56,635 bases of DNA, from IMG/VR virus record IMGVR_UViG_3300034356_000821, positions 1-56,635 of that record. One strand, written 5' to 3'. Within the stretch, counting starts at the first letter, position 1, and every line of letters starts with the position of its first letter. The notes under the pieces were generated by a model, which made no database searches, had not been told where the DNA came from, and saw only the letters and a list, made by a program, of their open reading frames with translations. The stretch is from a virus. Lineage: Duplodnaviria; Caudoviricetes. A program made the translations under genes and the position numbers. Shown one piece after another: positions 688 to 32,918 of the stretch.

Positions 688-1053
688 TCACACCCCTTGC
701 TCTTCAGCCATCAGCGCTGCCCATTTGAGCCACATGTAACGCATGCCTTGGACTTCGTAGTTGATCTTGTCGTACTCTTTAGGATCACCATACCTTGCAA
801 ACAGGGTTGAACTACCTGTGTTGCATCCCATGTTACACAGTCCATCAAGGACACGGCGGCGCATTGGTGCTACTTCACCATTGTAGTAAGCACCATATAG
901 ATGATAGAGGGCTTCATCAATGCTACAGCATGAGAACTTTTCTCTACGACCACCTTCACCGTATCGCTCATGAGCAACTAAGCATTTGTCAGCGGCAAGA
1001 TGTAACACATCTGCAACGGTGTGTTGTTTTTTCATAACTTTCGTTGCACTCAT
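688..1053 (-). CDS. Hypothetical early protein
   Basis: 121-aa ORF with GAGGA RBS, packed in the early operon. Confidence 0.7.
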   Translation of the reverse strand: MSATKVMKKQHTVADVLHLAADKCLVAHERYGEGGRREKFSCCSIDEALYHLYGAYYNGEVAPMRRRVLDGLCNMGCNTGSSTLFARYGDPKEYDKINYEVQGMRYMWLKWAALMAEEQGV

Positions 1054-1116
1054 AATGGTGAATCCTCATGGTTGGATGGGTTGAATGGTGGACGTTTCCG
1101 TCCATCGTCGAGCGGG

Positions 1117-1416
1117 TTAGGCCATGCTGGAAACGGCCATGCTGTCGAAGCCATATTCATACCTTTCATAGCTACGGATGCGGCTGTCTGTGTCACTACG
1201 CTTCTCAACAAACTTGACACGGGTATCTCGTTCGTTCAGTGCCATGCACAGGGTGGTCAGGTCACAGTCTTCTTCGAGGTAGGCATAGTCGCCACGTTGA
1301 TAGCTGTAGCGGCTTATCTTGTCGGCAATGCCGAGGTTGACCAGTACGTCTCGCTTGACCTTTCCCCATCCATGACCGGGGTCTGAGTACATTGTGATGG
1401 TGAATGACTTGCTCAT
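1117..1416 (-). CDS. Conserved phage protein (DPGHGW...YLEEDCD family)
   Basis: Recognisable DPGHGW and YLEEDCD motifs. Confidence 0.75.
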   Translation of the reverse strand: MSKSFTITMYSDPGHGWGKVKRDVLVNLGIADKISRYSYQRGDYAYLEEDCDLTTLCMALNERDTRVKFVEKRSDTDSRIRSYERYEYGFDSMAVSSMA

Positions 1417-1598
1417 GCTTCTTCCCTTGCAAATATTTGATCAACGCTGTGTGTCTCCCACTCATCAGAGGGAGTCCATTCGTGTTGCATACGGTCTTGT
1501 TCTACCCAAGCCAATGCTTCGGCTTCTTCTCTGCTATTGGCATCAACTGTGACGTTGACATAGCTAGACCGCACAATTTGTACGATGTATGTTTTCAT
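1413..1598 (-). CDS. Small early protein (VxAxSxEEA motif)
   Basis: ATGA overlaps with both neighbours. Confidence 0.7.
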   Translation of the reverse strand: MKTYIVQIVRSSYVNVTVDANSREEAEALAWVEQDRMQHEWTPSDEWETHSVDQIFAREEA

Positions 1599-1861
1599 GC
1601 TGTCACCATTGCATTGTTGTTGATGGTCAAGCCTTCACATGTCACCGACACAATGGTGTCTTTGTTGACACAGCGATAGCCTGTGTTGAGGGTGTCATAA
1701 ACGATGATGTATTTGTCAAGATCGACAGTGGTTGTACCGTTCTTGAGGTATTTGGTAACACCAATGCGACCATTCAGTTTACGGACAGTGCCATCTTTCT
1801 TGATGAAGTTGACGGTGATGAACTTGCCCTTGCTTTGGGCGATGAAGTCTACGATTTTCAT
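1595..1861 (-). CDS. SH3/WYL-like small phage protein
   Basis: FITVNFIKKDGTVRKL motif; AAGGA RBS before ATG at 1861. Confidence 0.7.
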   Translation of the reverse strand: MKIVDFIAQSKGKFITVNFIKKDGTVRKLNGRIGVTKYLKNGTTTVDLDKYIIVYDTLNTGYRCVNKDTIVSVTCEGLTINNNAMVTA

Positions 1862-1932
1862 TTGTTTTCCTTTGGAAGGTTGATACGATAGTGTATCGGT
1901 GATGGCCCTCATAAGACCATCACAGGACACTG

Positions 1933-2094
1933 TCAAAATATCTTCGTTGTCTTGTCACCCTCAACCGACCACACACTGACCACATCAGGGTGCATGGTCA
2001 AGCTGACTCTGTAAATGAACATATACATTTCATCTTCGTTTGTGAATGTTTGTTGCCAAACATGATCGTTCCTAAACTTCCAGTGCAGTGTCAC
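1933..2094 (-). CDS. Hypothetical 53-aa protein
   Basis: GTG start overlapping the upstream stop, GGAGG RBS; read manually. Confidence 0.55.
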   Translation of the reverse strand: MTLHWKFRNDHVWQQTFTNEDEMYMFIYRVSLTMHPDVVSVWSVEGDKTTKIF

Positions 2095-2261
2095 AGTTCA
2101 CCTCCACCCATGTAAGCCAATGTAAAGTCGGCAATTTCATCCTCGCTCAACCACTTACCAGCTTGAATGTGATCAAGGGACTGTGAGTCAATTCCGAAAG
2201 TGTGCCGCAGAAAAGCAGCAGCAAAGAAGAAGTCTTTGTGCATCTTGCGGTATGTATTCAT
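2091..2261 (-). CDS. Hypothetical protein
   Basis: MNTYRK start directly after the upstream stop. Confidence 0.6.
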   Translation of the reverse strand: MNTYRKMHKDFFFAAAFLRHTFGIDSQSLDHIQAGKWLSEDEIADFTLAYMGGGEL

Positions 2262-2262
2262 G

Positions 2263-2655
2263 TCACCACCAGCTATCATAGTACACAGCCTTGCCATAGT
2301 CCAGTGCCTCTCTTGCTTTAGCAATGAAGTCGGCAACGCTTTCGAGTTGTTCGGGGTACACCACTTGAGCACCAAAGAAGCTACCCTGAACAGGTTGCAT
2401 AGTGCCTGCTTCACGCTCAAGCCTGTCTAGGTCTTCGCTGGTCAATCGAACAGTGGTGCAGTTGAAGCTTGCTTTAGCACCACCTTTGATGCGGTATAGC
2501 TGTTCCATCCAGCCATGCAAAGCATTGAACTTGCGCCAGTAGAATAGCTCTGTCTTGTCGATCTCGTTGTCTGTGCCATAGTTGATGTCTAAGTCAACTA
2601 CGTTGTCGCCAGCATCCTTTGCTGACACGGTAAAAGCATACATGTCTAAGCCCAT
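2263..2655 (-). CDS. Conserved phage protein (MGLDMY...YWRKxNxLHGW...YxSWW family)
   Basis: Characteristic motifs; hairpin RBS. Confidence 0.8.
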   Translation of the reverse strand: MGLDMYAFTVSAKDAGDNVVDLDINYGTDNEIDKTELFYWRKFNALHGWMEQLYRIKGGAKASFNCTTVRLTSEDLDRLEREAGTMQPVQGSFFGAQVVYPEQLESVADFIAKAREALDYGKAVYYDSWW

Positions 2656-2666
2656 GATAGTTCCTT

Positions 2667-2843
2667 TCAGGAGAGTTGTTCTTGAATGATGTAAGTCGAT
2701 GCAGCCAGTGCATCTTTGATGGAGTCTACTGCCCAACCAGTGTATGTCTGCCCTTCGTTGTCAAAGAACAACTCATAGACCTGTGCTGTCTGGTCAAACT
2801 GTGCCCATATTTCGATGCCACTTTTCTTGGTGATCAATCGCAT
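2667..2843 (-). CDS. Hypothetical 58-aa protein
   Basis: MRLITKKSGIEIW...; AAGGA RBS; stop lies inside the next gene's RBS hairpin. Confidence 0.7.
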   Translation of the reverse strand: MRLITKKSGIEIWAQFDQTAQVYELFFDNEGQTYTGWAVDSIKDALAASTYIIQEQLS

Positions 2844-2854
2844 GATGTTTCCTT

Positions 2855-3046
2855 TCAGGAAATGTTGATGATTGTGAAGCCCTCAATCTCGGCAAAGAGG
2901 TTGAGCAGCCTGCTGCTCAGTTGCATGTTGCCACCGTAGACGACGACACGTTCGATGTTACCGTCTGCATGCTTTATATCGGCATAAAAAGCATCACCGA
3001 TACCATTGTCACAGCCTATGGCTCTGATGGTTGTTGCAGGTGTCAT
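2855..3046 (-). CDS. Hypothetical protein
   Basis: ATG at 3046 with AAGGA RBS. Confidence 0.7.
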   Translation of the reverse strand: MTPATTIRAIGCDNGIGDAFYADIKHADGNIERVVVYGGNMQLSSRLLNLFAEIEGFTIINIS

Positions 3047-3065
3047 GTTGTTTCCTTTCAGGAAG

Positions 3066-3422
3066 TTAAAAAACTTTACGTGAAACGATACCGAAACCAA
3101 CAGGCTTCGGGGTTTCATATCGCACAGCATCACTCAAATGATACATGTACTTCGCATCTTTGATGTAGAAAATACTGTGCTTCGCAACAAGGTGTTGGTC
3201 ATACAGATCATCGAATGCTAAAGCATCGCTGACCAGTGAGCATCCAACGACATTGACTTGACCAATTGCAAAGGCTTTGCCTTGTCCTGTTCGAACAATC
3301 GCAACGGTCTTGCCAATGTAGGGATGTAAGCTTTTACTATTCCTTGTCTCGATGGTTTTGATACCATCGACAATGAGATCAGCAAAGGCAACATCGGTGT
3401 TTCGCACATTGATGCCTATCAT
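3066..3422 (-). CDS. ASCH/PUA-like domain protein
   Basis: FADLIVDGIKTIETR matches the GxKxxExR ASCH signature. Confidence 0.85.
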   Translation of the reverse strand: MIGINVRNTDVAFADLIVDGIKTIETRNSKSLHPYIGKTVAIVRTGQGKAFAIGQVNVVGCSLVSDALAFDDLYDQHLVAKHSIFYIKDAKYMYHLSDAVRYETPKPVGFGIVSRKVF

Positions 3423-3423
3423 A

Positions 3424-3810
3424 TTAGTTCCAGACGTTGATGTGAGAACGTTTGTTCTCGCTTACAGTCAGTGCCACAAGACGACCTGTCTTGCATGGAT
3501 GCTCACCGTACAAGTGAACGAAGGTGTCGTACTTGTATGGGTTGTAGGTGATGGGTGTGCCGACTGTGGTGACACGATCAATGGTGATCAGGTCAGTGCC
3601 TGTCATGTCCCAATGACCAACAACACCAGCATGAACATTCTTCTTACGTTCACGAAGGACACGCTGTCGCCCTGCCTCAGACACCTTGAAGGTGGCATCG
3701 AACAGCAACACATCGTCACGATGTGCCACGACACGGCCCTTGTTCTTACCCTCAAGCGCTTTGATGCTGAAGCATTTGCGGTGCAGATTAAAGTATACAT
3801 AAACTCGCAT
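3424..3810 (-). CDS. Conserved phage protein (VYFNLH...RKKNVHA...YNPYK family)
   Basis: Recognisable motifs; strong RBS at ATG 3810. Confidence 0.8.
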   Translation of the reverse strand: MRVYVYFNLHRKCFSIKALEGKNKGRVVAHRDDVLLFDATFKVSEAGRQRVLRERKKNVHAGVVGHWDMTGTDLITIDRVTTVGTPITYNPYKYDTFVHLYGEHPCKTGRLVALTVSENKRSHINVWN

Positions 3811-3832
3811 GATGTTTCCTTTCAGGAATGAA

Positions 3833-3997
3833 TTAGGCAAAATCGCCCCGTTTGTCAAAACCAATTGATGCACAGAAAACATGTAATGTGTTTTCCCATT
3901 TTGTTTCTTCAATGCAAATAGACTTTGCTTCCCATGCAAAGCTTGCCTGAATGGTGTATGACGTATTGTCCCGCATTGTGACTGTGATTGTATGCAT
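3833..3997 (-). CDS. Hypothetical 54-aa protein
   Basis: ATG at 3997 with AAGGA RBS; read manually. Confidence 0.65.
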   Translation of the reverse strand: MHTITVTMRDNTSYTIQASFAWEAKSICIEETKWENTLHVFCASIGFDKRGDFA

Positions 3998-8847: not shown

Positions 8848-9012
8848 ATGGCTACAAAGAAAGCGTTTAAGCCCTGCGAAGGCTGTCCCACTCCTGCTAA
8901 ATGCAAGGCTGCTGGTAAGTGTATGGCTAAAGAAGGCAAGGGTGGTAAGCCTGTTGTCGCCATCATGATTGGTGTTGGTAAGCCAATGAAGGCTAAGAAG
9001 AAAGCTACATAA
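8848..9012 (+). CDS. Lys-rich mini-protein with CxxCx5Cx5C motif
   Basis: AAGGAAACATC-ATG start; four Cys. Confidence 0.75.
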   Translation: MATKKAFKPCEGCPTPAKCKAAGKCMAKEGKGGKPVVAIMIGVGKPMKAKKKAT

Positions 9013-9524
9013 TGGAACAAAAAGAAATTGATGAAACCCGTGCTAGATTTAGTCTGCAAGGGGGAGCTAATACATTCAAAGACTCTGGTGCTCAAGGCGC
9101 TGGTGGTGGTGGACGTGTTGGAGTATCTAAAGAACTAGACTCTGGTGGTCGAGTATCTGCTGGTGTTAGTGGTATGGCATCGAAGGTTAAGGTTGATACT
9201 CCTGAAGGTGAAAAGACATTTAAGCAAAGCAGGGTCACTGGTGTTGACGCTTCTTATTCCAAAAATGATACCACCTATGGTGTTTCAGCGTCTAGGCAAC
9301 CTATGATGGACGGTAAGATGGATAAGAAACTTAACTTGTCCATTACAAAGTCGTTTGCTAAAGGTGGTGCTGTCACTAAGAAGAAGCAAACCACCAAAGT
9401 TGCTAAAGTGATGGGAGAGTTCAAAGAAGGCTCTCTGCACAGCGGCAAAGGCGGCAAAGTTGTGAAGAGTCCTAAGCAGGCTATAGCAATTGCTTTGTCT
9501 GAAGCTAAGAAGCCTAAGAAGTAA
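9012..9524 (+). CDS. Two-domain protein: beta-strand-rich N-domain, FAKGG, then DUF6496-like domain
   Basis: C-terminal KVMGEFKEGSLHSG...KQAIAIALSEA. Confidence 0.8.
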   Translation: MEQKEIDETRARFSLQGGANTFKDSGAQGAGGGGRVGVSKELDSGGRVSAGVSGMASKVKVDTPEGEKTFKQSRVTGVDASYSKNDTTYGVSASRQPMMDGKMDKKLNLSITKSFAKGGAVTKKKQTTKVAKVMGEFKEGSLHSGKGGKVVKSPKQAIAIALSEAKKPKK

Positions 9525-12189: not shown

Positions 12190-14274
12190 ATGGCACTAAT
12201 TGACAAACCACAAAGCGACAAGAATATTGTCTTGGACGATTCCTCAAAAACTGAAGATACCTTCAAGGCTGGTGGTCTAATCGCCTTCGTTAATCAACGA
12301 TATACTCGTTCTGAAGAAAGTCGTCGAACTGATGAGACACGTTGGCTTCGTGCTTACCGCAACTATCGTGGCCTCTACGGTCCCGATATGCAATTCACAG
12401 CAACAGAGAAGTCGCGTGTGTTTGTGAAGGTGACAAAGACTAAAGTGTTAGCTGCATATGGGCAAATCATTGATGTGTTGTTTTCTAACAACAAATTTCC
12501 ATTGAGCATTGACCCGTCTGTGTTGCCTGAAGGTGTGTTGGATTCTGTTCACTTTGATCCAAAAGCTCCAGAGTCTGCACCAACCATTCCTTTCGGTGAA
12601 GAAGGTGGCGCTAATATCGGTAAAGACTTTGACCTCGACAATCTTGAAGAGATGTTGGGTGCGTTGAAGAATGACTTGAAAGATGTTCCCGGTTTGAAAA
12701 AAGGGCCGGGACAAACACCTACTTCTATAACATTTAGTCCTGCTATGGTGGCAGCTAAGAAGATGGAGAAGAAGATTCATGATCAGCTTGATGAAAGCAA
12801 TATGAATAAACATCTCCGCGCTACAAGCTTTGAAATGTCATTGTTTGGTACAGGTGTAATGAAGGGTCCATTCGCTGTCAATAAAGAATATCCAAACTGG
12901 AAAGAAGACGGTGTATATTCTCCCGTTATTAAAACAGTACCAGAAGGTTCTCACGTTTCTATCTGGAACTTCTATTGGGACCCTGATGCAAATAACACAG
13001 ACGAATGCCAATATGTTATTGAGCGACACAAGATGTCACGTACTCAACTTCGTCAACTGAAGAACCGTCCTTATTTCCGTAAGAACGTTATCGACGACAT
13101 CATTGCTGGTGGCGAAGGATACTCGAAAAAGTATTGGGAAGATACCATCAAAGATTATTCTTTAAATTATGGTGTTGATCGTTTTGAAGTGCTTGAGTAT
13201 TGGGGTAATGTTGATGTTGATATGCTCATTGAAAATGAAGTTGATATTCCTAAAGAGTTAGAAGATGTGGGTGAGTTGCAAGCAAATATCTGGTATTGCA
13301 ACGGTAAGATTCTTCGTTTAGTTTTGAATCCTTTTAAGCCTTCAAACATTCCATACTATGCCGTACCTTATGAACTCAATCCATATAGTCTTGCTGGTAT
13401 TGGTGTTGCAGAAAACATGGATGATACACAGACGCTGATGAATGGTTTCATGCGTATGGCTGTTGATAATGCTGTGTTGTCTGGTAACTTGGTGTTTGAG
13501 ATTGATGAAACCAACCTTGTACCCGGTCAAGACATGAGTGTATATCCCGGCAAAGTGTTTCGTCGTCAAGGTGGCGCTCCCGGTCAAAGCTTGTTTGGTA
13601 CAAAGTTTCCTAACGTATCGCAGGAAAACCTTCAGTTGTTCGACAAGGCTCGTCAGCTTTCCGATGAATCAACAGGTATGCCCTCGTTTGCTCACGGTCA
13701 AACTGGTGTGAGTGGTGTTGGTCGTACAGCTTCTGGTATTTCGATGTTGATGAATGCTGCCAGCGGTTCAATTAAGACTGTTATCAAAAACGTTGATGAC
13801 TACTTGCTGGCACCACTCGGTAAATCTTTCTTCAGCTTTAACATGCAATTTGATTTCGATCCAGAAATCAGAGGCGACTTGGAAGTTAATGCTCGTGGCA
13901 CAGAATCGTTGATGGCTAATGAAGTGCGTAGTCAACGCCTTATGCAGTTCTTGCAGATTGTTAGCAATCCTGCTCTTATGCCATTCGCTAAGATGCCCTA
14001 CATCATCCGTGAGATTGCTAAGTCAATGAACCTTGACGAAGACAAAGTTACAAACAATATGGATGAGGCTGCTCGTCAGGCAGCGTTGATGGCACCGCCT
14101 GCTGCACCCGCTGGCGCTCCAGCCGCTGGTGCTCCACCTATACCGGGTGCTGGCGGTCCTCCCGGTGTTGCAGACATGACAGGCGGTGGTGGTGGCAACA
14201 TCGGTATTGGTGCTGCCCCTGTACCGGGTGAGCAAGGCTTTAGCGCTGCACCTCCACAGATGCCGGGGATGTAA
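12190..14274 (+). CDS. Portal protein
   Basis: 694 aa after TerL; GTGVMKGP, GIGVAE, RTASGISML motifs; Pro/Gly tail. Confidence 0.92.
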   Translation: MALIDKPQSDKNIVLDDSSKTEDTFKAGGLIAFVNQRYTRSEESRRTDETRWLRAYRNYRGLYGPDMQFTATEKSRVFVKVTKTKVLAAYGQIIDVLFSNNKFPLSIDPSVLPEGVLDSVHFDPKAPESAPTIPFGEEGGANIGKDFDLDNLEEMLGALKNDLKDVPGLKKGPGQTPTSITFSPAMVAAKKMEKKIHDQLDESNMNKHLRATSFEMSLFGTGVMKGPFAVNKEYPNWKEDGVYSPVIKTVPEGSHVSIWNFYWDPDANNTDECQYVIERHKMSRTQLRQLKNRPYFRKNVIDDIIAGGEGYSKKYWEDTIKDYSLNYGVDRFEVLEYWGNVDVDMLIENEVDIPKELEDVGELQANIWYCNGKILRLVLNPFKPSNIPYYAVPYELNPYSLAGIGVAENMDDTQTLMNGFMRMAVDNAVLSGNLVFEIDETNLVPGQDMSVYPGKVFRRQGGAPGQSLFGTKFPNVSQENLQLFDKARQLSDESTGMPSFAHGQTGVSGVGRTASGISMLMNAASGSIKTVIKNVDDYLLAPLGKSFFSFNMQFDFDPEIRGDLEVNARGTESLMANEVRSQRLMQFLQIVSNPALMPFAKMPYIIREIAKSMNLDEDKVTNNMDEAARQAALMAPPAAPAGAPAAGAPPIPGAGGPPGVADMTGGGGGNIGIGAAPVPGEQGFSAAPPQMPGM

Positions 14275-14486
14275 TGATGGATAAGCCGTTTCTGCCAAAG
14301 CTTAAAGGTATGTTGAACAGTCCTCATTTGTGGGAAGCCTTTGTTGAGAAGCTTGATTATGATATTGAGCAACACCAACGCAAGCTGGAACAAACGACTG
14401 AGATGTCTGACGTGTTTAAAGCACAAGGTGCAATAGTTGCACTACGTCAGCTAAAGTATTTGAAGGAAGAAATCAATGCTAAATGA
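14274..14486 (+). CDS. Small portal-adjacent protein
   Basis: FKAQGAIVALRQL motif; overlapping starts and stops. Confidence 0.75.
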   Translation: MMDKPFLPKLKGMLNSPHLWEAFVEKLDYDIEQHQRKLEQTTEMSDVFKAQGAIVALRQLKYLKEEINAK

Positions 14487-15873
14487 AATGTATAAACTGT
14501 TTGCCGAGGGCGGTGTCATGCAAGAGGGTGGCACAGTCGATCCAGTTTCTGGTAACGATGTACCTCCCGGTGCTATGGCAGAAGAAGTTAGGGACGACAT
14601 TGACGCTAAACTTAGCGAAGGTGAGTTTGTCATTCCAGCCGATGTGGTGAGATACATTGGTTTGGAAAAGCTGATGATGATGCGTGACAAAGCTAAGGCT
14701 GGTCTTAAGCGTATGAACGATATTGGTCAGATGGGTAATGCTGAAGAAGTTCCTGATGCTGAAGCCCTGCATAGCGGTGGAGATGAAATGGATGATGAAT
14801 CTTTCTCGTCAGAGATTGATTCCATTATGGGTGAGGATGGGGGTCAAGAATATGCAGCAGGCGGTGATGTACGTAAGTATGCGCCGGGTGGTTATATTGG
14901 TGGCACTGCAAATCAAGAACTTTATAAAGATGCACCAATCCGTGGCTTTGAAATGGTAGAGATGGTGAATAAGGATGGTCAAGTCATTTACATCCCGTTC
15001 ATTAATGGCAGACCTCAGTTATCTATCCCTCAAGGATATACAGTTAAGTCGTCTGATATAACAACTACCACACCAACTACTCCTGCAACTGGTACAGGCA
15101 CAACCACTCCACAACCTACTGATGGTGGCGGCGCTGATGCTGGTGCTCCCGCTGCACCATCGTCACCGGGCTTTACTATTGGAGAAGACGGGGTTGCTAC
15201 TGCAAATACAACAAGCACCACTATTGGTTCTGTACTAGGTGCAGTTGTTGGTATGGTTACAGGATTATCTCCTGCCATGACATCACAGATTGGTAAGTCA
15301 GCGGTCAACCAATCAAACATTGCAAACACCCAAGCTGCGTTGTCTTTCAACACTGCTGTTGCTGATAACATGGCAATGGACAATTCACCAGCCGCTACCG
15401 CTGGTCCTACTGGTACAGGTGCGGCAGCAGCCTCTGCTGGTTCCGCTGCTGCCGCTGCTGCTACCGCTGTTGGTCATTCACCCGAAGCAGTTGCTGCTGC
15501 TGCACAGGCTGCTGCTACTGCTACAGTTGGTGGCGCTGGTCCCGCTGCTGCTGCCGCTGCTGCTGCCGATGCCGCTAACGCTGTCGCTGCCGATGCAGCC
15601 GATGCTGAAGGTGGTGGTCTTGGTACTGGTATCGGTATAGGTAGTGGTGGTACTGCCGCTGCTGATGGTGTAGGTGCTGATGGTATGGGTGTCGGTGCTG
15701 GTGTAGGTGGTGTAGGTGGTGAATCAGGTGTCAGCGCCGCTGGTGAAGCTGCTGGTGGCGCACCGTCAGGTGGTGGTGCTGACGGTGATGGTACTTATGC
15801 CAAAGGCGGCTTTGTATCCAAGAAGAAAACTACAACACCTAAATCAACATCGCTAGTATCTCGTCGTAAGTAA
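14476..15873 (+). CDS. LSEGEFV-domain protein with five tag motifs and an Ala/Gly-rich tail; candidate maturation or cargo factor
   Basis: DDIDAKLSEGEFVIPADVVRYIG; FAEGG, MQEGG, YAAGG, YAPGG, YAKGG. Confidence 0.8.
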   Translation: MLNEMYKLFAEGGVMQEGGTVDPVSGNDVPPGAMAEEVRDDIDAKLSEGEFVIPADVVRYIGLEKLMMMRDKAKAGLKRMNDIGQMGNAEEVPDAEALHSGGDEMDDESFSSEIDSIMGEDGGQEYAAGGDVRKYAPGGYIGGTANQELYKDAPIRGFEMVEMVNKDGQVIYIPFINGRPQLSIPQGYTVKSSDITTTTPTTPATGTGTTTPQPTDGGGADAGAPAAPSSPGFTIGEDGVATANTTSTTIGSVLGAVVGMVTGLSPAMTSQIGKSAVNQSNIANTQAALSFNTAVADNMAMDNSPAATAGPTGTGAAAASAGSAAAAAATAVGHSPEAVAAAAQAAATATVGGAGPAAAAAAAADAANAVAADAADAEGGGLGTGIGIGSGGTAAADGVGADGMGVGAGVGGVGGESGVSAAGEAAGGAPSGGGADGDGTYAKGGFVSKKKTTTPKSTSLVSRRK

Positions 15874-15995: not shown

Positions 15996-16859
15996 ATGAC
16001 TGAAATGGTAATGGAACAGAAAGCTGTTGTTGTCCCCTTTGGTAAACGCAACGCCAACCGTGAACGCATCGAACAAGAAGAAGCTGAACTTAAACAACTA
16101 AGCGAAGAAAATGTTAACGGAAAGCGCAACTCTGAAGAAAATAACGAAGACGATAGCAACTTGAGCGCTGAAGAGAAAAGCTTCAAGAAACGTTATGGTG
16201 ATCTTCGTCGCCATTCACAACAGCAATCTTTGGCTTTGCAGAAACAAATTGATGAACTGCGTAGTCAACTTACTCAGTCTACCGAGAAACAAATTAAGCT
16301 GCCAACGAATGAAGAAGACTTGGCTAAGTGGGCAGCAACATACCCTGATGTGGCAAAGATTGTAGAGACAATTGCCATTAAGAAAGCTAAAGAGCAAACT
16401 GCTTCAATGGAGCAACGCTTTGCGGCATTGGACGAACAAGAGAAACTAACAGCACGAGAAAAGGCTGAACTTGAACTTACAAGAATTCATCCAGACTTCG
16501 ACACCATCCGAGACACCGATGACTTCCATACTTGGGCAGATGAACAACCAGCTTGGGTACAACAAGCTTTGTATGAGAATGATACAGATGCTCGTTCTGC
16601 TGCTCGTGCCATTGATCTGTATAAGAGTGATCGCAACATTAGTAAGGCGAAATCGGAGAAGAAAACTTCTGGTGCAGCAGAGAGTATCAACACTCGCGGT
16701 AGCCGATCTGCTCCGTCCGGTGTAGACACTGATGGTCTAATCTACGAATCGCAAGTGAACAAAATGAGTTCTTTGCAGTACGAAAAGAACGTTGAAGCTA
16801 TTCAGAAGGCTATGCAGACTGGTAAGTTTGTGTACGATATGAGTGGCAATGCACGATAA
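15996..16859 (+). CDS. Capsid scaffolding protein
   Basis: Acidic coiled coil; FKKRYGDLRRH, HPDF motifs; precedes the capsid gene. Confidence 0.88.
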   Translation: MTEMVMEQKAVVVPFGKRNANRERIEQEEAELKQLSEENVNGKRNSEENNEDDSNLSAEEKSFKKRYGDLRRHSQQQSLALQKQIDELRSQLTQSTEKQIKLPTNEEDLAKWAATYPDVAKIVETIAIKKAKEQTASMEQRFAALDEQEKLTAREKAELELTRIHPDFDTIRDTDDFHTWADEQPAWVQQALYENDTDARSAARAIDLYKSDRNISKAKSEKKTSGAAESINTRGSRSAPSGVDTDGLIYESQVNKMSSLQYEKNVEAIQKAMQTGKFVYDMSGNAR

Positions 16860-17154: not shown

Positions 17155-18225
17155 ATGGCTTTCCCATCAGCAGTCGGTAACGGCAATCTGCCCAATGGTA
17201 ACTTCAGTGCAGTTATCTATTCCAAGCAAGTACAACTTGCATTCCGTAAAGCTTCTACAGTTGAAGACATCACCAATAGCGATTACTTCGGTGAAATCGC
17301 TAACATGGGCGACAGCGTAAAAATCATCAAAGAACCTGAAGTGTCGGTGCAAGCCTACGCTCGTGGTACTCAGATCACAGCGCAAGACCTCGACGACGAA
17401 GACTTCACCTTGGTTGTTGATCAGGCTAACTACTACGCCTTCAAGATCGACGACATCGAAGCTGCTCACTCGCATGTGAACTTTATGCAGATGGCATCGG
17501 ACCGCGCTGCCTATCGTCTGCGTGACAACTACGACCAAGACGTGTTGGCGTATCTGGCTGGCTTCCAACAGTCTGCTAAGCATGCTGCTGGCGACACCAC
17601 TCGTACCACTGCTCCCGGCACCAAAGCTGTTGCCTCCGCTGGTTCTGACGAATTGTTGGCTACCATGAAACTGAGCCGTCCTAGCTTTGGCAACTTGACT
17701 AGCGCTGGTTCTACTGGTGACTCCATCCCATTGGCCCCACGCTTCCCCGGCGCTACTGCTGTTTCCACTACCACTGTGTCCCCTCTGACTGTGATTGCCC
17801 GTATGGGTCGTCTGTTGGATACACAGTTTGTGGACACTCAAGGTCGCTGGTTGGTCGTTGACCCCGTGTTCGTTGAGATGTTGAAGGACGAAGACAGCCG
17901 CCTGTTGAATGGTGACTTCGGTGGTTCTGGTCTGCAAAACGGTTTGATCTTGAACAACCTGCATGGCTTCCGTATCTATGTGTCGAACAACACTCCTAAG
18001 TTTGGTACTGGCCCCGGCACTGCTGGTGCTTCTGCTCAGGCTACCAACTTCGGTGTGATCGTTGCTGGTCATGACTCTGCTGTGGCAACTGCTCAACAGT
18101 TGACAAAGACTGAGACATATCGTGACCCCGATAGCTTCGCTGACATCGTGCGCGGTATGCACCTGTATGGTCGCAAAATCTTGCGTCCTGAAGGTATCGT
18201 GGTTGCACGTTACAACGTGGCCTGA
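17155..18225 (+). CDS. Major capsid protein
   Basis: GEIANMGDSVKI, GRWLVVDP, FADIVRGMHLYGRKILRPE; AGGAG RBS; strongly biased codon usage. Confidence 0.95.
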   Translation: MAFPSAVGNGNLPNGNFSAVIYSKQVQLAFRKASTVEDITNSDYFGEIANMGDSVKIIKEPEVSVQAYARGTQITAQDLDDEDFTLVVDQANYYAFKIDDIEAAHSHVNFMQMASDRAAYRLRDNYDQDVLAYLAGFQQSAKHAAGDTTRTTAPGTKAVASAGSDELLATMKLSRPSFGNLTSAGSTGDSIPLAPRFPGATAVSTTTVSPLTVIARMGRLLDTQFVDTQGRWLVVDPVFVEMLKDEDSRLLNGDFGGSGLQNGLILNNLHGFRIYVSNNTPKFGTGPGTAGASAQATNFGVIVAGHDSAVATAQQLTKTETYRDPDSFADIVRGMHLYGRKILRPEGIVVARYNVA

Positions 18226-20621: not shown

Positions 20622-21344
20622 ATGGCATACGACTACATTGGTTTAGTGAATGAAGTGAACCGACGACTCAACGAAGTTGAACTCACCTCTGCAAACTTTA
20701 CTGCTACATCTGGTTTCTATTCACAAATCAAAGACTCCGTAAATGCTTCGTTGCGTGATGTATATGATGCTGGTCAAGACTGGGCCTTCAATCATGTTAT
20801 TGCTGAAGACACTTTGTCTGTTGGTATTAGTCGTTATGCTTTCCCGTCTGATGCATCAACTATTGACTTTGACACCTTTCGCATCAAGGCTGACAGTACA
20901 TTGGGTAACGAAACAGTCAAGTTGTCAATCATGCAATATGAAGACTATCTTGAGAGGGCTGTAGATCAAGAATACTCGACAGACACTTCCAAACTCACTG
21001 TGCCTAAGAGTATTGTTCATGCTCCTAGTTTAGAGTGGTTGGTTGTACCTGCCCCCGATCAGGTGTATGAGGTGGTGTATGAGTACTACCGAGTTCCCGT
21101 AGACCTTCTTATCTCTACAGATGTTCCTGCTGTCCCTGAGCGTTTCAGACATGTTGTCATTGATGGCGCTATGTATCATGCATATATGTTCCGCAGCAAC
21201 GAGCAATCTGCCAACTTAGCTAAGAACAAGTTTGAAGAAGGTATTAAGCGTATGCGTACTATGTTGGTTAATCGTGTTAGCTATATGCGATCCACTGCTA
21301 TTAACCAAAGCTCGTTATCTACATTCGGTGAAAGGGTTAAGTAA
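20622..21344 (+). CDS. Tail tubular protein A / adaptor
   Basis: LVNEVNRRLNEV; VPAPD..YEVVYEYY; PERFRHVV. Confidence 0.85.
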   Translation: MAYDYIGLVNEVNRRLNEVELTSANFTATSGFYSQIKDSVNASLRDVYDAGQDWAFNHVIAEDTLSVGISRYAFPSDASTIDFDTFRIKADSTLGNETVKLSIMQYEDYLERAVDQEYSTDTSKLTVPKSIVHAPSLEWLVVPAPDQVYEVVYEYYRVPVDLLISTDVPAVPERFRHVVIDGAMYHAYMFRSNEQSANLAKNKFEEGIKRMRTMLVNRVSYMRSTAINQSSLSTFGERVK

Positions 21345-23323
21345 TGGCTGACGGATGGCAGACATATCCTTTTGAGTTTCGTGGCGGGTTGGTATCAAAC
21401 CTATCCCCTCTACAACATGGCACTCAATCACCCGGTAGCGCACGACTGCTGAAGAACTTTGAGCCTTCAGTGGATGGTGGTTATCGTCGTATTGAAGGCT
21501 TTGATAAATACTCAAGCTCTTTCGTTCCAGCATATGGTGAGCCGTTAGTACAGGGTGGTAGCCAAACAGGTACAACATTGCTTGTCTCCAACTTGTTTAC
21601 CGCACCTGTAGCTGGTGACACATTCACAATTGCTGGCGTTACAGGCACCTACACAATCGCCACTGCTGGTGTCAGCTATAACAGCACCCACAAGCAAGCA
21701 ACACTGACCCTTACAACTTCGTTAGCATCTAGTCCTGCTGACAAAGCAATCATCAGCTTCACCAGCCATCAAGGACTAATTGAAGGTGTTGTTGCTTGGA
21801 ACAGCACAGTGCTGGTCTATCGAAACAGTGACATCTATTCCACCACTGGCTCAGGCTACACCAAAATCAATAAGCCTTCATACGGCACTGTGTTGGTTAA
21901 TGGTGGTAGTCAAACAGGTGCAACACTGGCTGTTGATGGTTTGACCAGTGTTCCACAGATTGGTGACACTTTCTCCATTGCTGGTGTTGCTTTGGTGTAT
22001 ACGGTGTTGGCTGTACCAACTGTTACTGCCACTGCTGCCACCATCAGTATCTATCCATCTTTAGCGTCTAGTCCCGCTAATAACGCCGTCATCACTTGGC
22101 AATCTGTTAGCCGAGCCAGTGGTGATAAATTACGCACTACTAAGTATCGCATTAATGGTGTCGATAAGGTGATAGGCGTTGATGGTTTTAACTATCCTTT
22201 TACGTGGAACGGTACAACCTTCACAGTGTTGTCGTCTGCTCCGTCTGATGTACTTGGTGCTGCATTTGTTGTCTATCACAAGAATCAAATGTTCTTTGCT
22301 AAAGGTGAAACCATTGTCTTCACCGCACCCTATACAGACTCAGACTTCTCTGTTGCTAATGGTTCTGGTGTCATCAATGTTGGTGGAGCCATCACTGCAA
22401 TCATTGTGTTTCGTGAAAACCTCATCATCTTTACTGACAAAACAATTAGTCAATTGACAGGTAACACGTTGCAAGACTTTGTGTTGCAGCCCATCACACG
22501 TAACGTAGGCTGTGTTGCCACTGACACTGTTGAAGAGATTGGTGGTGATGTCATCTTTCTTGGTCCTGAAGGGTTACGTTTGCTGAGTGCTACAGATCGT
22601 GTGGGTGACTTCAACTTGGGTGTGGTATCTAAGCCAATTCAAAATGAGATGACTTCGCTCATTTCATCTAGTTCATCCTTTGCGAGTTGTGTCATTAAGC
22701 AGAAGAGTCAATACCGCATATTCGGATATAACAGCAGCATTACGGCAACAAACTCAAAAGGTATTATCGGCACACAAACTGTAGGTAATGACACCAGCAC
22801 TATGTCGTGGGCAGAGACAGTTGGTATCAAAGCCTATGTTAGTGACAGTGACTATGTCAATCAGACAGAGACTTTGGTGTTTGCTCACAATGATGGCTAT
22901 GTGTATGAGATGGAAAGTGGTAACAATTTTGATGGTCAAAACATCATTGCTTCGTTCGCTACACCCTTTGTTTATATCAACGATCCTCGTGTCCGTAAGA
23001 CTTTCTACAAGATGGTGTTGTATACAGACCCACAGGGTGGTGTCACTACTTCCGTCAACTTGAAGCTTGACTTCGACAACTTTGGTTCCATTCAACCTGA
23101 GACAATTAACTTGTCGAATGAAACAGGTGTTGTAGGCTTCTACGGTAATAGCGGTGCTAAATATGGCACTACGATCTATGGCACCAAGTTGAAGAAGCAG
23201 TTTGAGACACAACTGATTGGTTCAGGGTTTAGTGTTTCGATTCAGTTTGTATCTGATGGACAGAATGCTCCGTTCTCTTTAGACGCTGCAACCATCGAAT
23301 ATAGTACACACGATAGACGCTAA
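21344..23323 (+). CDS. Tail tubular protein B / nozzle with two inserted domains
   Basis: FRGGL, NFEP..GGYRRI, GCVA, DVIFL motifs; duplicated GDTFxIAGV inserts. Confidence 0.85.
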   Translation: MADGWQTYPFEFRGGLVSNLSPLQHGTQSPGSARLLKNFEPSVDGGYRRIEGFDKYSSSFVPAYGEPLVQGGSQTGTTLLVSNLFTAPVAGDTFTIAGVTGTYTIATAGVSYNSTHKQATLTLTTSLASSPADKAIISFTSHQGLIEGVVAWNSTVLVYRNSDIYSTTGSGYTKINKPSYGTVLVNGGSQTGATLAVDGLTSVPQIGDTFSIAGVALVYTVLAVPTVTATAATISIYPSLASSPANNAVITWQSVSRASGDKLRTTKYRINGVDKVIGVDGFNYPFTWNGTTFTVLSSAPSDVLGAAFVVYHKNQMFFAKGETIVFTAPYTDSDFSVANGSGVINVGGAITAIIVFRENLIIFTDKTISQLTGNTLQDFVLQPITRNVGCVATDTVEEIGGDVIFLGPEGLRLLSATDRVGDFNLGVVSKPIQNEMTSLISSSSSFASCVIKQKSQYRIFGYNSSITATNSKGIIGTQTVGNDTSTMSWAETVGIKAYVSDSDYVNQTETLVFAHNDGYVYEMESGNNFDGQNIIASFATPFVYINDPRVRKTFYKMVLYTDPQGGVTTSVNLKLDFDNFGSIQPETINLSNETGVVGFYGNSGAKYGTTIYGTKLKKQFETQLIGSGFSVSIQFVSDGQNAPFSLDAATIEYSTHDRR

Positions 23324-27253: not shown

Positions 27254-27702
27254 ATATAATCACCATTGTTATAGCCATTGCCGCCTTCTTAGGTGGCTTT
27301 GCTGTTCAGGGATGGAGAATGAAATCAACCATTGCTGAAATTGAAGCAACTAATGTTGCTGCTGTAGTGGCTGCAACAACCGCAGTGGCTGAAGAGGCTG
27401 CTCGTTTACAAGGACAAAAAGATGATGCTCTCAAAGCTGCTCAACAACAAATTCGTAAGAACACTCTTGCTGCCGATGCTGCTCGTATTGAGCTTCACAG
27501 GGTGCGGGTCGAAGCAAACCGTGCCACCACCGCCATTGTTACAGCTACCTGCCCCGCCGTTAGAGACTACGCCACAACCTCAACGTCCGTATTCGGAGAG
27601 TGTACAGTTGCTCTTGAAGAAATGGCAAGACTCGCTGACGGACACGCAGTTGATGCAAAAGCCTTGAGAGATGCTTGGCCTACAACCAAGGAAACAAAAT
27701 GA
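27250..27702 (+). CDS. Rz: i-spanin
   Basis: N-terminal TM with VQGWR; Ala-rich coiled coil; two Cys. Confidence 0.85.
   Translation: MNIITIVIAIAAFLGGFAVQGWRMKSTIAEIEATNVAAVVAATTAVAEEAARLQGQKDDALKAAQQQIRKNTLAADAARIELHRVRVEANRATTAIVTATCPAVRDYATTSTSVFGECTVALEEMARLADGHAVDAKALRDAWPTTKETK
27422..27667 (+). CDS. Rz1: o-spanin lipoprotein embedded in Rz (+1 frame)
   Basis: FTGC lipobox; Pro-rich mature part; fully nested in Rz. Confidence 0.85.
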   Translation: MMLSKLLNNKFVRTLLLPMLLVLSFTGCGSKQTVPPPPLLQLPAPPLETTPQPQRPYSESVQLLLKKWQDSLTDTQLMQKP

Positions 27703-28169
27703 CAATGCTAACTAACAACTTCTCTTTGCACGAGATGATTAAGAGTGAGACAGCTTCGCGTAGAGATATGGACAATACACCGCATAGCGATGAAGTTGTG
27801 CAGAACTTGACAGTGTTGTGTGAACAAGTGTTGCAGCCTTTGCGTGATGCATATGGTGTTGGTATTAAAGTTAATAGTGGCTATCGTAGCCCTGACGTGA
27901 ATGCTGCTGTCGGTGGTAGTCGCACTAGCGATCACTGCAAAGGACAAGCTGCTGACATTGAGATTCCCGGTGTAGCTAATGCAGACCTTGCACAGTACAT
28001 CGCAGACAACTTTGATTTCACACAACTGATATTGGAGTTTTATACACAGGGTATTCCTGATAGTGGTTGGGTACATGTTTCATATGACAGTAACAATCTC
28101 AAACGACAAGTGATGACAGCGGTTCGCCAAAATGGTAGAACTGTTTATCTCCAAGGTTTGGTAGCTTAA
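27699..28169 (+). CDS. Endolysin, peptidase M15A
   Basis: SGYRS..VN..VGG...SDHCKGQAADI, WVHVS. Confidence 0.92.
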   Translation: MTMLTNNFSLHEMIKSETASRRDMDNTPHSDEVVQNLTVLCEQVLQPLRDAYGVGIKVNSGYRSPDVNAAVGGSRTSDHCKGQAADIEIPGVANADLAQYIADNFDFTQLILEFYTQGIPDSGWVHVSYDSNNLKRQVMTAVRQNGRTVYLQGLVA

Positions 28170-30817: not shown

Positions 30818-30826
30818 AGGAAATAT

Positions 30827-31027
30827 ATGCAACACATTAAAAATTATATGAATAAAATTGAAGATTTAATTTCTTCAAGAGAAAAAGAAGCCAAGAAAAC
30901 AAAAGAAGTTAAGGGACTTCTGACACCAGTAAAGTCTTCAACACCTTCTCAAAAAACTGAGTTGGATATTGTTGCCAGCTTTGTTCAAAGTATTCGACAA
31001 ACCCGAGAGGAAATGAATAATGGCTAA
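30827..31027 (+). CDS. Small internal virion protein
   Basis: AAGGA RBS; within the ejection cluster. Confidence 0.7.
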   Translation: MQHIKNYMNKIEDLISSREKEAKKTKEVKGLLTPVKSSTPSQKTELDIVASFVQSIRQTREEMNNG

Positions 31028-31511
31028 TCTTAGTCCCCTTGATGTTATTAAACCTGTACCACCCGGTATCTCGTGGACAGCAGAACCACGTAGTCGTCCT
31101 TGGTCTACACCACCTAAATTTGTTACAGTGAATGATGTTGCTCAAGGATACGTCAACAATCTGTCGTCTGCTAATATGGTTAACTCCACTCTCGACGCAA
31201 TTGAGACTGGTGTGCCGTTGGCCGCATTAGCTAATGGAATGATGTTGTCCGGTGTAGCTTCTGGTATTCATACGATTGATACAGGCATCTTAGTAACTCC
31301 AGTTATTATTGAAATGTTGAAGACGATTGCTGAGATTCATGGTATTAAATATCAAGTATTTGAAGAGGATGAAGATGCTGGTATTATTCCTGATCGCGTA
31401 GCGAAACAGGCAATGAAGAAAGCTTCGTCTGTTGTTGAAGAAGTTGTTGAACCTAAAGTAGAGCTTTTAGGGTTGATGGCTCGTAATCCTAAAAAGATGG
31501 AGAGTATGTAA
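31020..31511 (+). CDS. Internal virion protein
   Basis: PGISWT...PW..PP motif; C-terminal GLMAR. Confidence 0.75.
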   Translation: MANLSPLDVIKPVPPGISWTAEPRSRPWSTPPKFVTVNDVAQGYVNNLSSANMVNSTLDAIETGVPLAALANGMMLSGVASGIHTIDTGILVTPVIIEMLKTIAEIHGIKYQVFEEDEDAGIIPDRVAKQAMKKASSVVEEVVEPKVELLGLMARNPKKMESM

Positions 31512-32908: not shown

Positions 32909-32918
32909 AGGATAAATA

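Follow-up and report, generated by a model that had tools for sequence, protein, structure and literature searches.

A portal-adjacent protein of an HMO-2011-type podophage carries a tape-measure-like module and may be an ejected carrier

What does the gene between the portal and scaffold genes encode in an HMO-2011-type podophage? In lambda and T4, this slot holds a protease. In the complete HMO-2011-type podophage analyzed here (56,635 nt; the whole stretch is called the window), the slot is occupied by a plus-strand ORF of 465 amino acids (aa) with an ATG start (14476..15873; the target ORF). The original prediction held that its product contains a compact GEFV domain that stands in for a prohead protease and reads or cleaves the [FY]AxGG tags of several proteins in trans. 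The tags, the GEFV core and the link to tape-measure proteins (TMPs) and lambda gpH stood up to analysis; the protease and the action in trans did not. HMO-2011-type phages are described as a dominant and widely distributed marine group (PMC9038755). The slot gene lies in the conserved head block of every checkable related contig, yet its annotation in related records is only hypothetical protein. Cultured phages with a homolog include HMO-2011 itself (gp49) and a CRP roseophage.

The predicted location of the target ORF was confirmed both by the ORF call and by homologs. All genes of this block are on the plus strand. The portal gene (12190..14274) was identified by Pfam SU10_portal (E 3.8e-26) and by PHROG portal/adaptor families. 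Between it and the target ORF sits a 70-aa ORF (14274..14486) that was absent from the original prediction and that overlaps the start of the target ORF by 11 nt. A Shine-Dalgarno-like stretch, GAAGGAAG, is found about 7 nt 5′ of the target ATG. Downstream lie a gene for a charged 287-aa protein (15996..16859; phrog_13678), labelled scaffold-like solely because of its position, and the major capsid protein gene (17155..18225; phrog_267, E 3e-63). Wherever the flank was long enough, all related loci kept the order portal, 70-aa ORF, target gene, scaffold-like gene, capsid gene, and all related contigs had the conserved module described below in this one position. The portal gene was 5′ of the module in all 55 loci whose upstream flank exceeded 3.5 kb, and the scaffold-like gene was 3′ of it in all 20 whose downstream flank exceeded 5.5 kb. 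The 70-aa ORF is a conserved companion: 62 of 64 related loci have it upstream. The source phage has portal, adaptor, and fibre-adaptor proteins that match SU10 and GP4 Pfam families, and its tail genes are likewise of podophage families (SU10 adaptor, GP4 gp77, and a nozzle-like ORF). The adaptor gene is at 20622-21344 and the nozzle-like ORF at 21344-23323.

The target protein is built from distinct segments, all encoded on the plus strand. Residues 1 to 95 (14476..14760) form a conserved module that is tape-measure-like by its PHROG matches. The first tag, FAEGG (residues 9 to 13; 14500..14514), marks the N-terminal edge of the module, and its G12 and G13 are invariant. The core, DDIDAKLSEGEFVIPADVVRYIG (residues 40 to 62; 14593..14661), consists largely of invariant columns and aligns to lambda gpH 751-774 and to a Gordonia TMP; the extended invariant stretch of the module closes with SEGEFV-IPADVV. 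It runs into a long helix predicted by AlphaFold2 (residues 55 to 88; 14638..14739; pLDDT 82-88), whose invariant residues L63, M67, R70, A73, K74, L77, M80, and G84 form a single face. An acidic linker (residues 96 to 125; 14761..14850) leads to a pair of tags, YAAGG and YAPGG (residues 126 to 139; 14851..14892), in which G138 and G139 are invariant in 56 homologs. A beta mini-domain follows (YKDAPIRGF...IPQGY, residues 150 to 191; 14923..15048), modelled by AlphaFold2 at a pLDDT of about 90 with strands at 158-164 and 170-176. No alignment to relatives extended past about residue 192 of the target. The remainder is as originally described, an Ala/Gly-rich tail with YAKGG. It comprises an unconserved low-complexity spacer (residues 201 to 435; 15076..15780; 29% Ala, 20% Gly, and 11% Thr), whose DNA carries short imperfect repeats, and a basic C-terminal tail, YAKGGFVSKKK...LVSRRK (residues 436 to 465; 15781..15873 including the stop codon). 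The last 30 residues include the YAKGG and are 20% Lys. A tail motif recurs in homologs: 75 of 150 representatives have G-h-x-[SAT]-[RK] within their final 12 residues.

The module was matched by 2889 cluster representatives at E ≤ 1e-3, and 5590 clusters of 255 to 814 aa carry module relatives. Across 41 aligned module sequences, 41 columns were invariant. The invariant core residues are D40, D41, S47, G49, E50, F51, V52, P54, A55, D56, V57, V58, R59, and G62; the S47-R59 core, G12/G13, and G138/G139 were invariant or nearly so in 41 to 56 homologs. Median identity to the window over 80 loci was 73% for the module, 71% for the portal, 78% for the capsid protein, and 57% for the scaffold-like protein. 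Judged by these identities, the module shows the degree of conservation of a core structural component. No Pfam family covers it. Among the 120 matches listed by a broader profile search of longer proteins, all were further HMO-2011-type proteins and none was named. Main-text literature searches on the structures and proteomes of HMO-2011-type phages and on tape-measure motifs turned up no description of the gene or module, nor any structure or proteome of such a phage.

Is the target a protease? In line with the original prediction, none of the 77 window ORFs scanned matched a prohead protease family in Pfam; the sole peptidase match was an M15 endolysin-like ORF (27675-28169). The target itself fared no better as a candidate. 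It matched no Pfam family at E ≤ 1, its only PHROG match was a tape-measure family, and two AlphaFold2 runs gave no globular fold. The proposed compact domain was not recovered as a fold from residues 1 to 100 (pLDDT 62, pTM 0.34), and the model of residues 1 to 200 was similar (pLDDT 68, pTM 0.26), although the input alignments were shallow in diversity, which may alone account for the low confidence. Across the two models, the confident parts were limited to helix 55-88 and the 40-aa beta mini-domain. Low confidence of this kind would fit a partner-dependent docking segment followed by a disordered, channel-passable spacer. A Foldseek search with the 1-200 model returned nothing at E ≤ 1e-3, and the ESM Atlas returned hypothetical viral clusters only, the nearest named match being a crAss cargo protein domain (0.85), which is a lead only. 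Two sets of PDB matches were judged to be chance: weak nanobody matches at residues 119 to 190 in the sequence search (best E 8.8e-4), and a Myb protein and ribosomal protein L31 in the search with the module profile (best E 0.22).

Compared with prohead proteases (lambda gpC, T4 gp21, and HK97 gp4), the only likeness is gene position between portal and scaffold or capsid. In contrast with the S78/U35, S49, and S77/U9 types, the target has neither a family match nor a catalytic fold, and only about 95 of its residues are conserved. The assembly type of a P22-like coat with a separate scaffold needs no protease. In the HMO-2011 record the capsid protein is annotated as P22-coat-like, and this annotation together with the separate scaffold-like gene argues against the need for one. 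From the sequence searches and structure models, the target gene is not supported as a protease.

The tags themselves are real and conserved. Motifs of the form [FYW][AS]xGG occur in the target at residues 9, 126, 135, and 441, four copies around and beyond the GEFV core against a shuffle mean of 0.116, and none of 2000 shuffles reached four. Action in trans on several substrates calls for tags elsewhere, and two further ORFs (9012-9524 and 32919-38153) do carry FAKGG in a matching context. However, the remaining window ORFs (17,248 aa) contain three tags against 1.18 expected, a number reached in 37 of 300 shuffles; tags are not enriched in window ORFs other than the target. The ORF at 9012-9524 is a DUF6496 gene whose tag lies in an N-terminal extension that was absent from the homologous ORF in 11/11 related loci. 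In tblastn, the two other tag-bearing ORFs had no match in isolate phages, and tag conservation was checkable for the DUF6496 gene only. Five loci with a separate large ORF directly 5′ of the module ORF were examined, and in 3 of them KGG[ML]I forms the exact C-terminus of that large ORF. The module may thus still bind tags. This ending, like the lack of any other protease family in the genome and the slot's occupant in lambda and T4, favors a module that reads or cleaves tags in trans. Given the missing protease signature and compact fold, the lack of tag enrichment outside the target, and a capsid and scaffold arrangement that calls for no protease, we consider this model very improbable.

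The only named relatives of the module, in PHROG, tblastn, HMM, and hhalign searches, are tape-measure proteins. Of 56 homologs, 25 matched TMP family phrog_5448 (best E 2.3e-5), 4 matched phrog_3547, and 2 matched phrog_6090. In tblastn, 14 HMO-2011-type records came first, directly followed by TMP records from Gordonia and Rhodococcus phages (12 records, E 0.02 to 0.2). Scores with a module HMM were 20.1 bits for a Gordonia TMP, 27.1 for a protein of a Rhizobium phage, and 26.8 for the slot protein of pelagiphage HTVC103P; for each of these three, 0/500 shuffles matched the real score. The kinship spans only about 50 to 90 residues. For lambda gpH, the sequence similarity is weak: hhalign placed residues 8 to 69 onto gpH 732-774 with an E of 0.0055, yet a probability of only 6.6%, and the module HMM gave 0.9 bits, a score reached by 5 of 500 shuffles. 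The gpH region described in the original prediction exists in the NC_001416 sequence, with FATGG at 733-737, GEFV at 753-756, and YATGG at 777-781. The motif order is common to the target module, lambda gpH at about 732-785 (in gpHC), and the TMP of Gordonia phage SteveFrench: [FY]AxGG, a Gly/Pro-rich turn, a core of the form (S/D)D(S/I)IPAxLSxGE[FH]V-x-x-A-x-x-V, a helix, and a second [FY]AxGG. Tags and GEFV core travel jointly in cis as a single module, tape-measure proteins included. A peptidoglycan hydrolase is nearby in both groups: the Gordonia TMP has an SLT domain some 230 aa C-terminal to the module, and the target family has lysozyme or Hydrolase_2 fusions. Pfam Tape_meas_lam_C covers lambda gpH 627-701, not the module region.

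The target also differs from tape-measure proteins. Its phage is short-tailed, with no tail tube to measure, and at 465 aa it lacks a long helical ruler. Its gene lies between portal and scaffold-like genes, whereas a TMP gene lies between those for tail chaperones and tip proteins. The module is N-terminal in the target and near the distal (C-terminal) end in TMPs. The target protein is a module relative of tape-measure proteins, not a member of that family. Finding a distal TMP module in a short-tailed phage suggests an element common to long- and short-tailed phages for placement and passage of proteins in the tail channel.

Lambda gpH is processed near its C-terminus, as the original prediction had stated; the cut is reported in a glycine-rich region there, with site and catalyst given as not known (PMC12617516). 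Mapped on NC_001416, this region is just upstream of FATGG. An alternative is a self-processing cassette, in which the tags would be scissile or junction sites, the GEFV module would steer cleavage in cis or recruit a host enzyme, and cargo or tail pieces would be freed, as gpH yields gpH* and gpHC in lambda. Tags do lie exactly at unit junctions: in fused forms, ...FAKGGIVK directly precedes the module start. In other genomes the gene is split at tag-marked junctions, and 7 of the 80 loci have an ORF that terminates directly behind the acidic linker. The KGG[ML]I end of the upstream ORF is consistent with the same idea. By their conservation, invariant S25, N27, D40, D41, S47, E50, D56, and K74 are conceivable catalytic residues. 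But gene fusion and fission between neighbours explains the junction positions equally, and there is neither a peptidase or autoproteolytic family match nor a predicted compact fold. Self-processing appears improbable to us.

We are similarly doubtful of a broader proposal, that the [FY]AxGG-GEFV-[FY]AxGG cassette is a shared processing and docking element of proteins travelling through phage tails, the tags acting as cut or hand-over junctions under the direction of GEFV. If true, it would explain the cleavage of lambda gpH into gpH* and gpHC, and marine podophages would load and release interchangeable cargo, such as ADP-ribosyltransferases and lysozymes, for injection. The module flags an uncharacterized piece of lambda gpH beside the cleavage site, and gpH cleavage becomes approachable by targeted mutagenesis.

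Relatives of the target are modular. Among 150 representatives, the module was N-terminal in 82 and internal in 68; it is C-terminal in HTVC103P and RHph_TM29. In loci L017, L018, L027, L032, and L036 it is a stand-alone ORF of 122 to 125 aa, and in L017 and L036 the beta mini-domain is the C-terminal end of a separate ORF. Pfam searches of 51 longer homologs identified ART-PolyVal in 1, LPD23 in 5 (2 above the Pfam cutoff), Phage_L5_gp82 in 5, Phage_lysozyme2 with LysM in 2, and LysM alone in 1 more. Precomputed Pfam accessions provided further examples of cargo (PF18760, and PF01476 with PF18013). The target, with its lack of Pfam matches, has no recognizable cargo domain, and the N-terminal extensions of longer relatives had no homologs elsewhere in the window at E ≤ 1e-4. 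From the fusions one can list what HMO-2011-type phages may deliver to their SAR116, SAR11, and Roseobacter hosts by injection: an ADP-ribosyltransferase, cell wall hydrolases, and LPD23-type domains.

Taking the conservation, the synteny, the tape-measure kinship, the fusions and splits of cargo, and the absence of a protease signature together, we give about even credence to the target being a carrier protein that sits inside the virion, is ejected, and docks through a tape-measure-type module, without enzymatic cargo; its location in the virion, its ejection, and its docking are what we infer from these observations. The target ORF would be the minimal form of a modular, portal-adjacent carrier/ejection family of HMO-2011-type podophages. 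Its product would be incorporated into the procapsid at or near the portal, would occupy the portal-tail channel or its vicinity in an unfolded or extended state, and would exit ahead of, or together with, the DNA at infection. Module and tags would serve as docking elements that fold only on a partner or as an oligomer, and not as an enzyme. Relatives would use the same chassis with cargo (ADP-ribosyltransferase, lysozyme with LysM, LPD23, or L5-gp82-like), either fused or as abutting ORFs.

The same observations bear on an accessory of the portal or head that is not ejected, such as a portal plug, a head-completion factor, or a factor holding the DNA end, with the module binding the portal or channel and the basic tail binding DNA. 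Such a role is consistent with the strict portal adjacency (55/55 loci), with a module about as conserved as portal and capsid protein, with the basic C-terminus seen in roughly half of the homologs, and with the lack of cargo in the source-phage protein. The fusions to ADP-ribosyltransferase, lysozyme with LysM, and LPD23, however, make most sense if delivered. Tape-measure proteins, the sole named relatives, exit the virion (PMC10721106, PMC12617516), and phage phiM6, with a portal 53% identical to that of the window, lacks the module. We consider a nonejected accessory unlikely, while giving it some weight.

The carrier reading resembles two known systems. Phage polyvalent proteins have been argued to be encoded near portal or terminase genes, packaged in the head, and injected (PMC5512222). 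Like these polyvalent and MuF-linked carriers, the target is encoded next to the portal and its homologs carry disparate domains, and by analogy head packaging and injection would be common to both. In contrast with them, the target contains no MuF or other Pfam family and no enzymatic domain, and at least two disparate effector domains in one polypeptide were found only in homologs. The anchor would also differ, being a tape-measure-like module; a term search of PMC5512222 gave no occurrence of "tape measure". Podophage ejection proteins (SU10 gp20-24, T7 gp14-16, and P22 gp7/16/20) would be alike in their proposed role. Those of SU10 are described as stored in the head and released before or with the DNA, some with muralytic domains (PMC9509320). 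The target has no sequence similarity to podophage internal-virion-protein families in Pfam or PHROG, and its gene position differs. A separate cluster of large ORFs without assigned function (28181-38153) could encode the conventional ejection proteins and would then leave no need for a further one, which counts against a carrier.

An external decoration or fibre, in which the module would fix a flexible filament rich in Ala and Gly to the capsid or neck, would account for the long low-complexity region, and LysM and lysozyme fusions could also work from outside the cell. Kinship is with lumen-resident tape-measure proteins, however, a polyvalent-type ADP-ribosyltransferase needs delivery into the cell, and neither the basic tail nor the location of the gene among head-assembly genes fits an exterior role. 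We regard this alternative as extremely improbable.

Besides the large-ORF cluster, we counted against the carrier reading that phiM6 manages without the module, that the target has no cargo, that the tape-measure kinship is confined to a short stretch, and that the lambda match is weak. In its favor, the same slot in phiM6 encodes an 812-aa protein with a cell-wall-hydrolase match and a Ser/Gly-rich tail. The 70-aa ORF was considered as a module-specific partner and rejected, since module-free phiM6 has a weakly similar small ORF there (pairwise E 2e-5). Also in favor of a carrier, GGL[AF]S was found within the final 12 residues of 37 of 150 homolog representatives, and the end of lambda gpH, RDGGLFS, resembles it, a likeness spotted post hoc. 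Residues 818 to 849 of gpH, which contain RDGGLFS and do not include the module region, are the only part of gpH modelled in the lambda structures, where they lie in the tail-tip lumen (PMC10721106).

The record is that of a complete virus of 56.6 kb, and the phage is a member of the HMO-2011-type podophage group, its nearest isolate-level relatives being the 'Manatee Spring' podovirus genome, Puniceispirillum phage HMO-2011 and the CRP roseophages. The slot protein (ORF 14476-15873, + strand; 465 aa, with a plausible ribosome-binding site upstream) is encoded between the portal gene (12190-14274; Pfam SU10_portal) and a 287-aa charged ORF in the scaffold position (PHROG function unknown), beyond which lies the major capsid protein gene. 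A 70-aa ORF between the portal and slot genes overlaps the start of the latter. Among 80 IMG/VR loci, the portal was upstream in all 55 whose upstream flank exceeded 3.5 kb, the 70-aa ORF preceded the module ORF in 62 of 64, and the scaffold-like gene followed in all 20 whose downstream flank exceeded 5.5 kb. Across the 80 loci, the module (the conserved residues 1 to 95) had a median identity to the window of 73%, compared with 71% in the portal, 78% in the capsid protein and 57% in the scaffold-like protein. Given this constant setting and the portal- and capsid-like identity, the module evolves like a core structural component. The same setting would suit a portal or head accessory that is not ejected; the tape-measure kinship and domain fusions of the family point elsewhere, and we consider that role unlikely. 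HNH-type endonuclease genes interrupt the head-gene block in relatives: one lies after the portal gene and before the 70-aa ORF in locus L017 (5260-5802), and another separates the scaffold-like gene from the capsid gene in L002 (MW202701; 7916-8485). The 70-aa ORF keeps adjoining the module ORF.

All sequence features named in the original prediction were found. The core string DDIDAKLSEGEFVIPADVVRYIG occupies residues 40-62, [FY]AxGG tags occur at residues 9, 126, 135 and 441, and a low-complexity stretch of 235 aa is 29% Ala and 20% Gly, with a Lys-rich tail. The four tags compare with a shuffle mean of 0.116, and 0 of 2000 shuffles reached four. In an alignment of 41 sequences, 41 module columns were invariant, including G12, G13, S25, G26, N27, the block E37-D41 and nearly all of S47-R59; the helix after the core has one invariant face (L63, M67, R70, A73, K74, L77, M80 and G84). 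Beyond about residue 192, the protein could not be aligned even to its closest relatives. An external fibre might carry a long low-complexity region; with the gene in the head-assembly block and tape-measure proteins as relatives, this identity seems very remote. The portal itself ends in an Ala/Pro/Gly-rich low-complexity tail of roughly 70 aa (14065-14274, residues about 626-694), similar in composition to the spacer of the adjoining slot protein and also present in the portals of loci L017 and L036.

Searching 1.84 billion cluster representatives by phmmer, with residues 1-100 as the query, gave 2889 homologs at E<=1e-3, of which 2513 had E<=1e-10; the 150 matches listed of the 2889 were proteins of 126-1590 aa that shared 57-91% identity across the module. 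A word-indexed search returned 5590 clusters of 255-814 aa, and the names among the 120 matches listed were all 'hypothetical protein'. The relatives of the module that do carry names are all tape-measure proteins (TMPs). When 56 homologs were scanned singly against PHROGs, 25 matched phrog_5448 (best E 2.3e-5), 4 matched phrog_3547 and 2 matched phrog_6090, each annotated as a tail length tape measure protein; the two other families found were unnamed, each matched by a single homolog. When the module was searched by tblastn against 50,697 phage records, 14 HMO-2011-type records ranked first, followed by TMP records, 11 from Gordonia and one from Rhodococcus phages (E 0.02-0.2); four records from Rhizobium phages and two stray matches made up the remainder. 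In the Gordonia TMP, YATGG is followed by GPGTETSDSIYAKLSRGEHVITAAEV and, about 35 residues on, by FARGG, and an SLT transglycosylase domain lies about 230 residues downstream of the module. A module HMM trained on HMO-2011-type modules only scored 20.1 bits on a fragment of this Gordonia TMP, 27.1 bits on EVB31_085 of Rhizobium phage RHph_TM29 and 26.8 bits on the pelagiphage HTVC103P slot protein, and 0 of 500 shuffles reached the real score in each case.

The proposed resemblance to lambda gpH was borne out as to sequence: gpH (NC_001416) has FATGG at 733-737, HRGEFVFTKEA at 751-761 and YATGG at 777-781. hhalign placed target residues 8-69 on gpH 732-774 (E 0.0055, probability 6.6%) with a 19-residue insertion in the target. 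Taken alone the lambda link is weak, since the module HMM gave gpH 0.9 bits (at 752-780), a score reached by 5 of 500 shuffles; what makes it credible is chiefly that, in a broader alignment, Gordonia-type TMPs form a bridge between the module and gpH. The module part of gpH has no Pfam cover because Tape_meas_lam_C spans 627-701. It also lies outside the residues modelled in the lambda tail structures, which, in the available portion of the source, comprise only 818-842/849, seated on the gpI plug within the tip lumen (PMC10721106). The available text of a second source has a cleaved gpH fragment remaining in the particle and gives both cleavage site and catalyst as unknown (PMC12617516). By arithmetic on the sequence, the module would sit at the start of gpHC, one of the two cleavage products. 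A slot protein that processes itself, with the tags as cut sites, would parallel gpH cleavage; with nothing in the protein resembling an enzyme, we judge this quite improbable. GGL[AF]S occurs within the last 12 residues of 37 of 150 family members, against 12 occurrences in their other 91,285 aa. The gpH C-terminal end ...MRDGGLFSGGGR resembles this family end, a likeness noticed after the fact. The motif is short: the last 12 residues of gpH (L003, lambda, 1043-3604) read RDGGLFS..., compared with ...KRGGLASRKK in the family, and fall inside 818-849, the part modelled in the tail tip.

The GEFV domain had been proposed to be a protease or reader of the GG tags, acting in trans on several substrates. 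A Pfam search of the target returned no family even at E<=1, a PHROGs search gave one weak match, to a tape-measure family, and PDB sequence and profile searches with target or module gave chance matches only. AlphaFold2 reached pLDDT 68 and pTM 0.26 for residues 1-200 (56-sequence alignment) and pLDDT 62 and pTM 0.34 for residues 1-100 (41 sequences). Only a helix at 55-88 (pLDDT 82-88) and a small beta mini-domain at ~158-190 (about 90) were confident; the invariant stretch 12-50, which includes the first tag and the larger part of the GEFV core, stayed near 50-55. Little diversity in the alignments may partly explain the low confidence. Foldseek with the target model found no match at E<=1e-3. 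Nothing in these searches points to an enzyme, and the protease assignment gained no support. The genome does lack a recognizable prohead protease, as had been predicted (no family match among 77 window ORFs scanned). The capsid gene is, however, accompanied by a separate scaffold-like gene, and the HMO-2011 record annotates the homolog of the window capsid protein as P22-coat-like; assembly of that type works without a protease. Tags are not enriched outside the target, contrary to action on several substrates: the remaining 17,248 aa of window ORFs hold 3 versus 1.18 expected, and 37 of 300 shuffles reached 3. A trans-acting tag reader or protease is thus highly improbable. One of these tags, FAKGGAVTKKK, lies in a 170-aa ORF (9012-9524, +) between a Gly-rich low-complexity N-terminal part and DUF6496 (Pfam E 2.5e-10), and closely resembles the YAKGGFVSKKK of the target's own tail. 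In 11 of 11 related loci, DUF6496 is encoded by an independent ORF of ~53-57 aa, or by a longer one, that has neither the Gly-rich extension nor the tag, and 9012-9524 looks like a local fusion at the tag junction. Another tag, FAKGG, is at residue 1118 of a 1744-aa ORF within 28181-38153 (+).

The module is N-terminal in 82 of 150 representatives and internal in 68; it is C-terminal in the HTVC103P and RHph_TM29 proteins. The HMO-2011 ortholog has 762 aa and the Manatee Spring ortholog 994 aa, the latter with a 390-aa N-terminal extension ending in FAKGGIVK right before the module. In 7 of 80 loci the ORF ends just past the acidic linker: five have module-only ORFs of 122-125 aa (L017, L018, L027, L032 and L036), and two (L019 and L021) have about 335 aa upstream of the module in the same ORF. 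In L017 and L036, the two of these loci analysed over their whole length, the ORF that follows (502-594 aa) directly abuts the module ORF and has a low-complexity region, with the beta mini-domain at its C-terminal end. In 5 loci examined, a separate large ORF lies between the 70-aa ORF and the module ORF; KGG[ML]I forms its exact C-terminus in 3 of them but not in the other 2. A Pfam scan of 51 longer homologs found ART-PolyVal in 1, LPD23 in 5 (2 above the Pfam cutoff), Phage_L5_gp82 in 5, Phage_lysozyme2 plus LysM in 2, and LysM alone, a Hint fragment and a weak methyltransferase match in 1 each; 35 of the 51 had no family. Two of these domains, ART-PolyVal and LPD23, typify the 'polyvalent proteins' described by Iyer et al.; the accessible part of that paper argues that such proteins, encoded close to the genes for portal and terminase, are packaged into the head and co-injected with the DNA (PMC5512222). 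The window has a stand-alone cell-wall hydrolase gene (222-686, -; Hydrolase_2, E 1.8e-19) and a stand-alone Phage_L5_gp82 domain gene (3424-3939, -; E 4.3e-41), and in other phages these Pfam families are found joined to module proteins or occupying their slot; neither gene showed direct similarity to the relatives' extensions at E<=1e-4.

Our leading interpretation, about as likely as not, is that the target represents the minimal form of a family of carrier or ejection proteins that reside inside the virion and are encoded beside the portal. We infer its place in the virion, its ejection and its docking from kinship, gene position and fusions; literature searches found no HMO-2011-type particle proteome or structure. 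The module and tags may be docking elements, structured only against a partner or as an oligomer, which would account for the near-invariance of a module with no predicted fold. The disordered spacer would suit passage through a narrow channel, and the tail, basic and tagged, may either bind DNA or, like that of gpH, dock distally. Several findings count against a carrier. The target lacks a cargo domain, its resemblance to lambda gpH is weak, and Sinorhizobium phage phiM6 (portal 53% identical) manages without the module, its slot holding an 812-aa protein with a cell-wall-hydrolase match just below the Pfam cutoff (26.2 versus 27 bits) and a Ser/Gly-rich tail. The large-ORF cluster 28181-38153 could also encode the phage's ejection proteins. 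Its four ORFs (878, 163, 465 and 1744 aa), downstream of the lysis genes, are candidates for conventional ejection or internal proteins; none matched a PHROG family at E<=1e-3, three matched no Pfam family, and the 1744-aa ORF had only a sub-threshold EPL1 match (E 3.1e-4; 21.8 bits versus a cutoff of 25.4). No Pfam family covering the module was found, nor any published description in literature searches, whose scope was the text outside supplementary tables. On the carrier reading, the target is best called a head-packaged carrier or ejection protein with a tape-measure-type module replacing MuF.

An ADP-ribosylglycohydrolase gene (54203-55051, -; Pfam E 8e-44) is present in the window, and slot-protein relatives sometimes carry the ART-PolyVal ADP-ribosyltransferase; there may be an interplay between the two activities. 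The window also encodes a tyrosine integrase (52918-54006, -; Phage_integrase, E 3.9e-15), and the phage is therefore probably temperate, as reported for several HMO-2011-type subgroups.
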